A stretch of 64,000 nt of DNA, taken from a virus. Taxonomy: Duplodnaviria; Caudoviricetes. The translations under genes were made by a program, and so were the position numbers. This document shows positions 38,455 through 59,092 of this stretch, in pieces. Each line of letters opens with the position of its first letter. The stretch's first letter is position 1. Under the pieces are notes generated by a model, which was not told the origin of the DNA, ran no database searches, and saw only the letters and a program-made list of their open reading frames with translations. The stretch spans positions 1-64,000 of the IMG/VR virus record IMGVR_UViG_3300010998_000002; one strand, 5' to 3'.

Positions 38455-38479
38455 AAAAAAGCACCTATTTCTAGGTGCT
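38455..38479 (-). terminator. intrinsic terminator of the RNA locus
   Basis: AGCACCTA-gaaa-TAGGTGCT plus T6 on minus strand. Confidence 0.8.
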
Positions 38480-38589
38480 ACTTATATGTATATTAGAGGT
38501 AAAATTGAAGGCGACAATGAGATTGATTACCCATATAATCCGATTACCCAACAGATTGTTTTTATTTAAACTATGTCGCCCATTTTAAT

Positions 38590-38667
38590 TGGTTGCAGAG
38601 GTTAGAATTGAACTAACTACTATTCCAGGTTATGAGCCTGGCGAGCCACCGTTGCTCCATCTCTGCT
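38590..38667 (-). tRNA. tRNA-Met(CAT), initiator-like
   Basis: GCAGAG/CTCTGC acceptor stem with unpaired 1:72, GAGC/GCTC D-stem, CCAGG-CTCATAA-CCTGG anticodon arm, GTTAG-TTCAATT-CTAAC T-arm, encoded CCA. Confidence 0.9.
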
Positions 38668-39190
38668 ACGCCCTATTTTAACCTTAATAGGAAGGATGAT
38701 TTAGTAACCGATAAAATCATAAATGCCGGCATCAACAGAGGTTTATTACACTAACATGTTGATAATGCGTGGTGTTTATCTCGTCAAACCTTTTCCCACA
38801 ACACACGTCTTTTATAACCTAAATAAAAAATAAGATAGTCTAATTTTCTCGTTAATTAGCAATCACTATACACCATTACTTTCGGCATAGTAGAAATGCA
38901 CCTAATGTAATCTCGGCGACTTAATCTTGAAAGATTAGGCAGTAGTGCCGTCAGCCACCCCAGAACTCAATGCTAGGGTAAAAGGAATCAAACCTTAATA
39001 ATCTTTTAAGCGACTTGCGTACCTCATTGACTTTCACTACTAAACCAAAGGGTATTACTCGCAAAAATCATGCGCAAATCTTTTAAAATAGGTGATGCAC
39101 CGGTGAATTTCCACTAAAATTTGACGTGGTGCATAGCCATCACCTACTCCGGAAAATTTATTTTATTTTCAAAGTTCTTTGTCTTTCAAC
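38668..39190 (-). ncRNA. candidate structured non-coding RNA(s) upstream of tRNA-Met
   Basis: ~520 nt without long ORF, raised GC, several stems, strong promoter at 39197-39235 and boxA-like AGAACTTTGAAAAT. Confidence 0.6.
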
Positions 39191-39239
39191 ATTATTATAA
39201 TATCATGAATTATATTTAATGTCAAGAGTAGATTTTTTA

Positions 39240-39422
39240 TTAGTGTCCTTTTACTGTTTTTACTGCATTATAGACAAAATGCCACATTTTATAAATCTTA
39301 TCCGGAAAATATTTATTATTACATCTAAAGCATAAACATTCTTGTTCTGTAATGTTAGGGTTATCTGTAATCCATGTATCACCACAATAAGGACATATTA
39401 TCACATTTACTGTATCATTCAT
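39240..39422 (-). CDS. small zinc-ribbon protein
   Basis: CPYC and CFRC; start MNDTV. Confidence 0.65.
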   Translation of the reverse strand: MNDTVNVIICPYCGDTWITDNPNITEQECLCFRCNNKYFPDKIYKMWHFVYNAVKTVKGH

Positions 39423-55991: not shown

Positions 55992-57632
55992 ATGTTTTCA
56001 CACGAACAAATTGTTGATTTCAAAAATAAAGTTAATAAACGAGAATTTTATAGACAATTTTTAGAATTAAGACAAAGCGGTAAATTGTTATGGGCAGTAT
56101 GCCCATTTCATAACGACCATAGTCCTAGTATGTCTATTGATGAAGATACAGGAATTTTTAGATGTTGGTCTTGTGGTGCGCATGGTGATATTTTAGATTT
56201 CTATCAAAGATTAACAGGCAAATCATTGTCCGAATCAATAATGGATATTGCTAAAAGTCAAAATATAAAAATTGAAATATCGGAAGAATTACGCAAAGAA
56301 TTAGAGTTAAAACGTGCATTATATTTGCTTAATGATAACATTGCAAATTTGTATCAACGAGCATTGGCGCAAAATAAAGAAGGGCAACAGTATTTAATCT
56401 CTCGTAATTTTTCACTTGATATAATCAAACAGTTTAGAATTGGTTATATTCCATCATTACCACTAAAGGATTTGGGCGAACAATTTATACCACTTCTTAA
56501 AACTGCGCAACTTGTTAATGTAAATGAAGATGGAAGTGTTTATAATTATTTTGGTACTCATAGAATTTCTATACCATTTTTTGATGAATACGGACATATT
56601 GTCGGATTTTCTTCAAGAACAACTGATAATCGTTATCAACCAAAATATTTACATTCACGAACAAGTAAACTGTTTCAAAAAAGTGAATTACTTTATGCTT
56701 ATAATTTTGCAAAAGAAAAAATTAAAGAAACAAAATCAGTAATTATTACAGAAGGACAAATAGATTGTATTAGATGCCATCAATACGGCATAACAAATAC
56801 TATTGCTACTTGTGGTTTGGCTTTATCAGACAAACAATTAAAATTATTAAAAACTTATGTTAAAAATTATTATATTATAGTTGAAGATAAAGCCGGTGAA
56901 AATATGGTTGATAAATATTATGATGTTATATCAACAAGTAATTATTGGGCGAATATTAAAATTATTCGTTTATATGAAGGTGATGAAAAATGTGATGCTG
57001 ATGAATTTTTACAGAAATATGGTAAAGGTGCATTTTTAGATAAGATTAAACATGCTAAACCATACCATGAATATAAACTTATTGATTCATTAAAAAATAT
57101 TAATTATAAAACCATTGAAGAAAAAAAGTTTCATATTTATAATAATAGAAAATATATTGCTAAAATTACACATCCGGTAGATAAAAAACAGTATATTGAA
57201 TTACTAGCAGAAAAATTAGAATTACCGGAAAATGATGTACGAAAGATTATTGCTAGGTCAGAATCTACCGATAATGATATTAAAATTGGAGATTATGATG
57301 ATAGGCGCACAACATCACAAAAATATATTTTAGCAACATTCTTTTCGGAATTTGGTGTGCAAACAGCATACGAAGTCATGCATAATAAATTAAAAATTTA
57401 TAATAGACTTGACAATAAATTCAGAAAAATATATAATAAAATAGTAGATGTCATTTTACTATACGGAGCAAATGCAGATATTATAAATGCAGTTCATAGT
57501 TTAGATATTATGACACAAGAGGAATTATCTATACTAGATGATGCCTATTTTAAGAGAGATGAATTTAATTATCTTGAAGATGAAGAAGAATTAGCACTTT
57601 TTCTCAAAGACCAAATAGAAAATTTAAGGTAA
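55992..57632 (+). CDS. dnaG: DNA primase
   Basis: CPFH...CWSC zinc finger, PKYLHS, EGQID TOPRIM, DADE. Confidence 0.95.
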   Translation: MFSHEQIVDFKNKVNKREFYRQFLELRQSGKLLWAVCPFHNDHSPSMSIDEDTGIFRCWSCGAHGDILDFYQRLTGKSLSESIMDIAKSQNIKIEISEELRKELELKRALYLLNDNIANLYQRALAQNKEGQQYLISRNFSLDIIKQFRIGYIPSLPLKDLGEQFIPLLKTAQLVNVNEDGSVYNYFGTHRISIPFFDEYGHIVGFSSRTTDNRYQPKYLHSRTSKLFQKSELLYAYNFAKEKIKETKSVIITEGQIDCIRCHQYGITNTIATCGLALSDKQLKLLKTYVKNYYIIVEDKAGENMVDKYYDVISTSNYWANIKIIRLYEGDEKCDADEFLQKYGKGAFLDKIKHAKPYHEYKLIDSLKNINYKTIEEKKFHIYNNRKYIAKITHPVDKKQYIELLAEKLELPENDVRKIIARSESTDNDIKIGDYDDRRTTSQKYILATFFSEFGVQTAYEVMHNKLKIYNRLDNKFRKIYNKIVDVILLYGANADIINAVHSLDIMTQEELSILDDAYFKRDEFNYLEDEEELALFLKDQIENLR

Positions 57633-57685
57633 AAAAATCTACTCTTGACTTTTAAAATTAAATATGATAATATAATAATGTTGAA
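57632..57685 (+). promoter_or_regulatory. stable-RNA-type promoter
   Basis: AAAAAATCTACTCTTGACT-17-TAATAT then AATAATGTTGAA; near-identical to the minus-strand promoter at 39186-39238. Confidence 0.75.
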
Positions 57686-57843
57686 CGATGACAAGTAATT
57701 CAGAAGTAATTGTAAAATGTAGTGAAGCAACCATTCAAACTAACTGCAAGTAGATTTTGAGTACCTGTGGATTTGACGAAGGACTACCTCTTTAGGCATA
57801 TAGAATGAACGAAGGTAATTAAGTAAACAATTTAGAACTTTGA

Positions 57844-58319
57844 AAATCAAATATTATAATGAGAATCTGTGCGAGAATAATCCTTTCTAGGGATAATCGG
57901 ATGCAAACAGAGTTTTGCAATAGACTTCATAGGCTTGTCAAAGCCGAATGTTTGTAGGTTATTTTGATGGAGATACCGTAACGCACACGTTGAATCGTAG
58001 AACGCTACTTTGAATTTATGGCTTATATGGCTGTATTGGATAAGAATGTCAGTATATTTGCTGGACTATCCTAGCGTATAGGATAGATTAGATTTTGAAC
58101 GTGGTACGCTTGCATAAGGCAGTTTGTAGTAAATGGCTATATTACATTCAGATGATGTCATAGAATGTGAGCATATAGGTAATCACTCCTACCGGCACTT
58201 TAAGTATTTTCTTGACGAAGAAAATATGGCTGATGGCGGAATAACGGCAAATGGCTATATCATCAAGATTTGTGGGTAACAGATAACTCCCATTAGATTC
58301 TCATTATAATATTTGATTT
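57844..58319 (+). ncRNA. candidate large structured ncRNA enclosed by a 25-bp terminal stem
   Basis: perfect inverted repeat 57844-57868/58295-58319, overlapping boxA-like AGAACTTTGAAAAT, many internal hairpins, no long ORF. Confidence 0.7.
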
Positions 58320-58342
58320 GATAGTTTTTTGAGAGGGTTAAA

Positions 58343-59092
58343 GTGGAAGTAAAATTAATAAGTTATAATGATAATATCATAGATATTATTCATACGGCTT
58401 GTCGTACTTGTTATTCAAAATTAACACCGATAGAAATCTATAATAAAGATACTTACGCTGGTGAAGAATTTGATATATCAATAGAACAAGTTAAAGAAGA
58501 TAGAATAAAAAAAATTGAACTTATTAAAAAAGTTATGAATAGTGGGCATTTAAGCACTACAGAACATGCTTATTTTACTTTCGCTATTGCCGGAGTATCA
58601 AGAGCATTATTGGCTCAAATCACAAGACATAGGCTTTGTAGTTTTTCTGTTCAAAGTCAAAGATATGTAGAAATTAAAGAAAACCTAGAAGATTTAATTG
58701 TATTAAATACTTGCGGTACTAAATATCAAAAAATAGAATTATTATCAAAATATTTTGTATTTAAAGATGATAATGATTTATTTATTGATAGTTGCTTAAA
58801 TGCTTTAATTCAATATCTTCAATTAACAAAAGAAGGATATAAAGCCGAAGATGCAAGAAATGTTTTACCAAATGCAACAAAAACAAATATTGTTTTATCT
58901 TGCAATTTAAGACAATTAATGCACATTTGTAATTTAAGATTATGTAAACATGCACAATTAGAAGTTAGAACTATGGTTGGTAAAATGAAAAATGAAGTTT
59001 TATCTAAACCGGAATGTGAATGGTTAAAGCCATATTTAGTTCCTAATTGTAAAAATTGTACTGATTTTAGAGATTGTAAGGAGATTAAGTAA
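58343..59092 (+). CDS. thyX: flavin-dependent thymidylate synthase
   Basis: GHLS..EH, SRA...Q..RHR..SFSVQSQRY, EDAR.VLP, LRLC.HAQ.E.R; GTG start after GAGAGGG. Confidence 0.95.
   Translation: MEVKLISYNDNIIDIIHTACRTCYSKLTPIEIYNKDTYAGEEFDISIEQVKEDRIKKIELIKKVMNSGHLSTTEHAYFTFAIAGVSRALLAQITRHRLCSFSVQSQRYVEIKENLEDLIVLNTCGTKYQKIELLSKYFVFKDDNDLFIDSCLNALIQYLQLTKEGYKAEDARNVLPNATKTNIVLSCNLRQLMHICNLRLCKHAQLEVRTMVGKMKNEVLSKPECEWLKPYLVPNCKNCTDFRDCKEIK

Follow-up and report, generated by a model that had tools for sequence, protein, structure and literature searches.

Large, intricately folded RNAs are rare in bacteria and their phages, and nearly all of them have proved to be biologically important or structurally surprising. 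The stretch of DNA analysed here, hereafter the window, comprises 64,000 nucleotides (positions 1 to 64,000) of the IMG/VR record IMGVR_UViG_3300010998_000002, a complete 108,612-bp genome of a phage of the Caudoviricetes with direct terminal repeats. In the window, the stop codon of dnaG (57632) and the GTG start codon of thyX (58343) are separated by a gap of 710 bp whose longest open reading frame is 48 amino acids. An earlier note on this DNA had drawn attention to the missing reading frame and to a perfect 25-bp complementarity, and had proposed that the gap encodes a structured RNA with the expression signals of a ribosomal RNA (rRNA) operon. What does this gap encode, and how might its product be made? 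The complementary arms are as that note described them: a repeat finder returned 57844-57868 and 58295-58319 as exact reverse complements of 25 bp with 426 nt between them. Here we present evidence that the gap encodes a conserved, highly structured, plus-strand non-coding RNA of ~476 nt, in which about 20 helices show abundant compensatory change; it adds a well-supported new member to the ornate RNAs. By analogy with rRNA operons, we lean modestly towards the view that the phage produces this RNA in the manner of an rRNA, with RNase III freeing a stable molecule that would act in trans, and that it is an enlarged and distant relative of the manA RNA.

Conservation, structure and distribution of the dnaG-thyX RNA

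Fifteen distinct copies of the RNA, with 52-78% identity to the window copy, were collected from contigs of public assemblies reached through ThyX homologs of 97-59% identity, and from two further metagenome contigs added by a 25-nt degenerate pattern. The structure was tested on a 15-sequence alignment (A4) with an RNAalifold consensus, using as controls pairing partners slid by 1-3 columns and 500 column shuffles. The consensus contains 118 pairs in 19 helices. Cells at these positions are paired in 90.9% of cases, compared with 39-44% when the partners are slid, and double-sided changes occur at 69 pairs, compared with 23-38 in the slid controls; not one of the 500 column shuffles reached the observed values. 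G-U combinations fill 242 cells across the alignment and A-C combinations 40, and therefore the structure forms only from the plus strand. No open reading frame on either strand is conserved among the homologs. The proposed structured RNA, with covariation among its homologs, is thus borne out.

The inverted repeat forms the closing helix of the RNA, P1 (Table 1), which is 26 bp long once a terminal G-U pair is counted. Each of the 15 homologs has this helix, and its sequence differs among them. Its longest uninterrupted stretch measures 23-33 bp in ten copies; L018, L171 and L020 reach 14-17 bp, and L016 and L021 form 25-26 of the 27 aligned pairs. Of these 27 pairs, 13 have compensatory double changes, and 95% of their cells are paired. 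A 496-nt stretch folds with a z score of -5.8 relative to shuffles. Because of this value, and because the closing helix recurs with different sequences in 15 of 15 homologs, the inverted repeat and the fold are far beyond chance.

Inside the closing helix, the long-range helix P4 is found at corresponding positions and is formed by different sequences from lineage to lineage; it is clear in about half of the lineages and short in the rest. The four internal hairpins that had been picked out by eye are all present; the GACG-loop hairpin and the small second hairpin of P3 covary, and the hairpins at 58066-86 and 58142-70 fall in regions of variable length among homologs. The quasi-palindromic 8-nt motif AUGGCUAU occurs in two copies joined as an 8-bp helix (58133-40 with 58251-58), and the available covariation is compatible with pairing of the motif either within one molecule or between molecules.

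G-U wobbles allow the motif to pair with itself. It occurs four times, ~118 nt apart (58017-58035, 58133-58140, 58227-58232 and 58251-58258), and once more at the beginning of the second RNA locus described below (39133-39140, minus strand). Since other short repeats share the ~118-nt spacing, the pattern suggests an internal duplication of a module within the RNA.

On every contig that is long enough, thymidine kinase and dnaG come first, followed by a gap of 620-813 bp, then thyX and a PD-(D/E)XK nuclease. The RNA is present, at this fixed position, in every relative that has the dnaG-thyX junction, and thyX is the downstream gene in all 13 homologs in which the next gene was examined. The gap is missing from a different phage, whose ThyX is 52% identical. 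Nothing similar to the gap sequence was found in GenBank phages with blastn; tblastn with the primase returned relatives only at 31% identity or less, with no cultured relative and no host among them, and a ThyX protein-atlas comparison gave no host clue. In IMG/VR only the phage itself and one relative (G001) carry the element, and a pattern search of 185,579 species genomes found no copy. The RNA is specific to one clade of uncultured phages of ~105 kb. Literature searches found no description of it, and it could still sit unnamed in bulk catalogues such as that of PMC8040213.

The 25-nt degenerate pattern returned 66 metagenome loci, 2 of them real, and 58 species-genome loci, none of them real. 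Seven of the pattern loci, all from one sample, were rejected as coding sequence with a retroelement-integrase-like motif (read by eye), and a looser pattern of boxA plus arm returned more than 100 chance loci.

Table 1. Features of the dnaG-thyX region and of the second RNA locus (window coordinates)
Feature	Position	Strand	Remark
DnaG-type primase gene	55992-57632		Pfam assignment
Sigma-70 promoter (-35 57645-57650; 17-nt spacer with TG; -10 57668-57673)	57645..57673	+	inferred start near 57680
Variable leader, promoter to boxA	57680..57833	+	20-330 nt in relatives
boxA-like 14-mer, rRNA-leader type	57834..57847	+	overlaps start of P1 5' arm
P1 5' arm, leader strand of closing helix	57844..57869	+	
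UG linker and P2 (3-bp helix; internal loop GAAUAA (5') / UAA (3'); capping hairpin)	57870..57899	+	3/3 P2 pairs covary
P3 domain (8-9-bp helix around two hairpins)	57902..57956	+	8/9 helix pairs doubly changed
P3 hairpin with GNRA-type loop	57910-57927	+	4/6 pairs doubly changed
P3 second small hairpin	57933-57945	+	4/4 pairs doubly changed
Expanded central domain closed by P4	57961..58269	+	
P4 long-range helix	57961-57969 with 58261-58269	+	
Nested helices in central domain	57983-57996 / 58091-58105	+	
Central-domain hairpins	58017-35, 58049-64, 58066-86, 58108-20	+	
Central-domain hairpin	58176-91	+	
GACG-loop hairpin within a helix	58204-27 within 58193-96 / 58229-32	+	
GAAUAA-loop hairpin	58234-49	+	
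P5 terminal hairpin (5-bp stem; conserved 11-13-nt loop)	58272..58293	+	abuts P1 3' arm; 4/5 pairs covary
P1 3' arm, trailer strand	58294..58319	+	
Shine-Dalgarno sequence and GTG start of thyX	58331..58345	+	12-24 nt past closing helix
thyX	58343-59092		Pfam assignment
Second non-coding locus (near-identical promoter; only other exact boxA-like site)	38455-39240	minus	promoter at ~39230
tRNA-Met in second RNA locus	38666-38594	minus	
Sub-threshold tRNA-like unit	38580-38509	minus	25.3 bits vs 29

Promoter, boxA-like element and comparison with rRNA operons

The promoter that precedes the RNA has the same form, with a near-consensus -35 hexamer, a 17-nt spacer and an extended -10, directly after the dnaG stop codon in 11 homolog loci; the contig of L020 begins inside the leader. 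Between promoter and boxA the leader exists in at least two conserved sequence types (window 57680-57833; L009 2300-2480; L016 1440-1580). The window type is conserved in the window, L018, L171, L019 and L008, and with five sequences the support for a structure in it is weak; the second small RNA that the earlier note suggested for these ~150 nt is a candidate. The relative G001 (L004 2536-2640) has two tandem promoters before boxA and almost no leader. A match of the leader to the glutamine riboswitch, a family otherwise known from cyanophages, was dismissed as chance (16.3 bits against a threshold of 35; E 1.8).

The boxA-like 14-mer is kept in 15 of 15 homologs, with one variable T/A position and an A-to-T change in L004 and L201. 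Only two exact copies exist in the whole 108.6-kb genome, and both lie behind a shared promoter and ahead of a non-coding RNA locus. When a loose version of the element was searched in five fetched genomes with the reversed sequence as control, it was found at 12 places in a Staphylococcus and at 9 in a Bacillus, compared with 0-1 for the control. In the Staphylococcus hits that were read, GAACATTGAAAACT lies 84-86 nt upstream of the 5' end of 16S rRNA, directly behind a promoter; in the Bacillus operon leader, GTTCTTTGAAAACT lies behind a promoter and upstream of the 16S start as read by eye, there being no Rfam annotation at that place. The phage 14-mer differs at 1-3 positions from these motifs. 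This match to rrn leaders of both genomes upholds the description of the promoter and boxA as rRNA-operon-like, and the boxA element overlaps the 5' arm as claimed, by 4 nt.

In bacterial rRNA operons, leader-trailer helices of 27-44 bp enclose the 16S and 23S rRNAs and are cleaved by RNase III, and boxA and the Nus complex have a role in this process (PMC10250234). The phage locus presents the same elements in the same order: a strong promoter, boxA, the 5' strand of a helix, a structured RNA and the 3' strand. Its closing helix is longer than the ~17-20 bp that mark an rRNA-type leader-trailer helix and lies within the range reported for 16S and 23S (PMC10250234). Unlike an rRNA operon, the locus encloses an RNA that is not rRNA (no Rfam rRNA match), has no identified boxB or boxC, and is placed inside a replication operon and followed by a protein gene. 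A phage non-coding RNA gene that copies the full packaging of an rRNA operon, with promoter, boxA and leader-trailer helix, is new to us, and it offers a handle for asking whether Nus factors chaperone RNAs other than rRNA.

The other exact boxA-like site belongs to a second non-coding locus on the minus strand (Table 1). It comprises ~480 nt with neither an Rfam match nor any similarity to the dnaG-thyX RNA beyond promoter and boxA, followed by a tRNA-Met and a sub-threshold tRNA-like unit, and it is ended by a terminator-like hairpin. In G001 the same promoter leads directly into tRNA-Met, tRNA-Glu and tRNA-Asp, without the ~480-nt part. The promoter and boxA in front of the dnaG-thyX RNA thus also serve a tRNA locus, which is a stable-RNA context.

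Relation to manA and to other RNA families

Rfam searches covered the window at gathering thresholds, the region at E<=10 and ten homolog loci at E<=0.1, and no family was found apart from a sub-threshold manA match in homolog L018. There was likewise no covariance-model match to ROOL, GOLLD, OLE, HEARO, RNase P RNA, tmRNA or group I and II introns; the earlier failure to recognise tmRNA, RNase P RNA or a group I intron by eye is in agreement with this search. Weak matches to Baculoviridae NAE, rli62 and snoRNAs were dismissed as chance. Like ROOL and GOLLD, the phage RNA is hundreds of nucleotides long, very elaborate, phage-encoded and of a function that is not known. Unlike them, it has a different architecture, with no match at E<=10, and lies between dnaG and thyX rather than in a tRNA island. 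The lambda nut site, the HK022 put site and EAR are likewise promoter-proximal RNA elements of phages or operons, and lambda nut has a boxA; these elements modify RNA polymerase, measure 30-120 nt and act only in cis, whereas the phage RNA has a conserved fold of 430 nt within a helix that resembles a processing site. GOLLD and ROOL are often found near tRNAs (PMC12286853), as the second RNA locus of this phage is adjacent to tRNA-Met.

The manA RNA (RF01745), carried by T4-like cyanophages and marine bacteria, is an orphan candidate riboswitch to which no function has been assigned since 2010. Because the sub-threshold L018 alignment was striking, we fetched manA reference RNAs, namely that of cyanophage P-SSM2 (181.6 bits) and five more cyanophage loci. 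The manA consensus consists, in order, of the 5' strand of P1, a UG linker, a short helix that is capped by a hairpin and has a GAAUAA-type / UAA loop, a helix around three hairpins (one of them GNRA), a fourth arm of ~45 nt and, directly next to the 3' strand of P1, a 5-bp hairpin whose loop is conserved. The succession of modules is the same in the phage RNA, which has them at 57870-57899, at 57902-57956, in the domain that 57961-69 / 58261-69 closes and at 58272-58293; the P5 hairpins of L016 and L018 can be matched to the manA consensus at almost every base. Both RNAs are phage-borne and stand directly behind their own sigma-70 promoter; they share P1, the UG linker, the P2 GAAUAA/UAA module, a multi-hairpin P3 with a GNRA loop, a further arm and a terminal 5-bp hairpin with an 11-13-nt loop. 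A GACG-loop hairpin occurs in both as well, 5' of P1 in manA and inside the molecule in the phage RNA. They differ in scale: manA measures ~175-190 nt and has a G+C-rich P1 of 5 bp, no boxA and a fourth arm of ~45 nt, whereas the phage RNA measures ~476 nt, its P1 ~26 bp (14-33 in the family as a whole) and its fourth arm ~310 nt; a boxA precedes it, and the fourth arm, unlike that of manA, repeats some modules internally.

Models were compared in both directions. The six manA RNAs and the Rfam structure gave a model (R2) that was run unfiltered over 11 loci of the phage RNA family, 125 kb counting both strands. Its top five hits (8.0-11.9 bits) all fall inside the phage RNA, on the plus strand and in at least four independent lineages; the RNA makes up ~4% of the sequence searched, and outside it no hit scored above 5.8 bits. 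Conversely, a model of only the 5' part of the phage RNA family (R1), run with filters off, had its top five hits in five of the six cyanophage loci, each exactly at the first base of manA P1. It aligns the linker, P2 and the P3 helix to manA, and in all six loci the alignment of the P2 module is a top or near-top hit. The phage's other RNA locus, taken as a control to see whether structured sequence as such draws hits, gave no manA-like signal (3.5 bits or less).

Several results weigh against kinship with manA. The Rfam manA model finds nothing at E<=10 in the window genome (G000) or in G001, and in L018, the sole match, its score of 22.7 bits falls short of the 55.2-bit cut-off. The cross-family hits are individually weak (E 0.07-1.2), R2 misses the window's own copy, and R1 with default filters misses manA. 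The shared GAAUAA/UAA loop, which we take to be akin to the UAA/GAN-type tertiary motif, may be generic, and the resemblance may for this reason be convergent. Taking both sides together, the order of modules and the reciprocal model hits suggest that the RNA is probably a distant, enlarged relative of manA; owing to the weak E-values, the miss of the window copy by R2, the misses by Rfam and default R1 and the possibly generic loop, it is not filed as a member of the family. The earlier note's assignment to an unknown class accordingly stands in that the RNA falls below the Rfam manA threshold, but not wholly, as the core five-way junction matches the manA layout. A second and very different version of this junction shows which parts are essential, and the larger, possibly free-standing form may be easier to purify, probe and image.

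The six fetched manA loci always lie just behind a promoter of their own that overlaps the terminator of the previous gene. In these T4-like cyanophages (L304 1455-1500; L306-L310 ~340-400) manA starts a few bases past the sigma-70 promoter, whose -35 hexamer is inside the stem of the preceding terminator hairpin. In the outer helix of manA a Shine-Dalgarno-like strand is paired with a strand resembling the 3' end of 16S rRNA.

Possible biogenesis and function

On the favoured reading of an excised, trans-acting RNA, host NusB/NusE and the other Nus factors would load onto boxA. The modified polymerase would resist termination and hold the 5' end of the transcript near the RNA exit, so that the trailer strand could pair with the leader strand across ~430 nt. 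RNase III would then cut the closing helix, releasing a stable RNA and separating the dnaG and thyX messages. Relative to manA, the arm at P4 would have been expanded from ~45 to ~310 nt and P1 lengthened from 5 to ~26 bp. As a working guess, the fold may be a module that binds a ligand or a protein, made as a free RNA with a trans-acting role during infection. Two points count against this proposal: RNase III and the Nus factors are brought in by analogy alone, and a role in cis is inseparable from one in trans because thyX always follows, with no terminator between it and the 3' arm of the RNA.

This second point is also the strength of an unlikely but serious alternative, in which the RNA is a cis-acting leader of thyX and the genes behind it, a riboswitch-like or protein-binding 5' untranslated region that tunes nucleotide-synthesis genes. 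The constancy of thyX as the next gene and the lack of a terminator agree with such a role, as does the position of P-SSM2 manA upstream of purL-hsp20-purM. The manA RNA has been proposed to be cis-regulatory, possibly a riboswitch, and is described as a likely 5' untranslated region of genes that include those of nucleotide synthesis (PMC2864571); it is still uncharacterised (PMC9964418). The closing helix speaks against a leader of this kind. At 14-33 bp, with at least 23 bp unbroken in 10 of 15 copies, the longer versions are too stable for switching, and the helix covers neither a terminator nor the Shine-Dalgarno sequence, 12 nt before which P1 ends. Moreover, the genes that follow manA in the cyanophages are unrelated to one another (purL-hsp20-purM in P-SSM2, gp32, small open reading frames after gp23, talC), which argues against a metabolite-specific switch, and the promoter and boxA shared with the tRNA locus point to a stable RNA. 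The gene context of manA and the long, non-switching P1 thus fit a self-contained RNA better than a metabolite switch for a single pathway.

It is improbable that only boxA and the long helix work, forming around a functionless interior a cassette for processive antitermination and mRNA processing, by which the replication genes downstream would be boosted and uncoupled from dnaG. Promoter, boxA and helix are indeed the most constant features of the locus, and boxA elements also regulate genes other than those of rRNA (PMC5725501). The interior, however, keeps ~19 internal helices and several invariant loops with compensatory change at 52-78% identity and is therefore unlike a spacer, and the tRNA locus has a boxA without any such helix. 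A replication-origin transcript, that is, a structured primer or R-loop RNA beside the primase gene, is very improbable: the RNA does lie within the replication module next to dnaG, and G001 has its two tandem promoters upstream, but the RNA's own ends pair with each other and a coding gene follows at once rather than an AT-rich unwinding region. A DNA-level element, either a protein-binding palindrome or the insertion resembling a miniature inverted-repeat transposable element that the earlier note had set against its own proposal, would account for the perfect 25-bp inverted repeats at the ends and has next to no probability, the transposon-like insertion being ruled out, as the element is single-copy in the phage genome, absent by pattern search from the species genomes and fixed in position in all relatives, shows no target-site duplication at its flanks by eye, and has arms whose sequences vary among relatives while their complementarity is kept, through compensatory changes that include G-U pairs valid on the plus strand only.

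The favoured reading of a stable RNA acting in trans can be carried further, although we consider the extension rather doubtful. In it, manA and the phage RNA would be two ends of one ancient phage-borne fold, which here would have been enlarged, equipped with the host's signals for rRNA biogenesis (the Nus-factor boxA and the RNase III helix) and mass-produced as a free, stable RNA that acts in trans on nucleotide metabolism or translation of host or phage. Such an RNA would possibly associate with itself through the 8-nt quasi-palindromes; ROOL and GOLLD are RNAs that self-associate.

A minor observation concerns the downstream gene. The called ThyX reading frames of L016 (1981-2060) and L021 (3001-3080) are 17-18 amino acids longer than the others, and the extension covers the 3' arm of the RNA; this is probably a miscall of the start codon.

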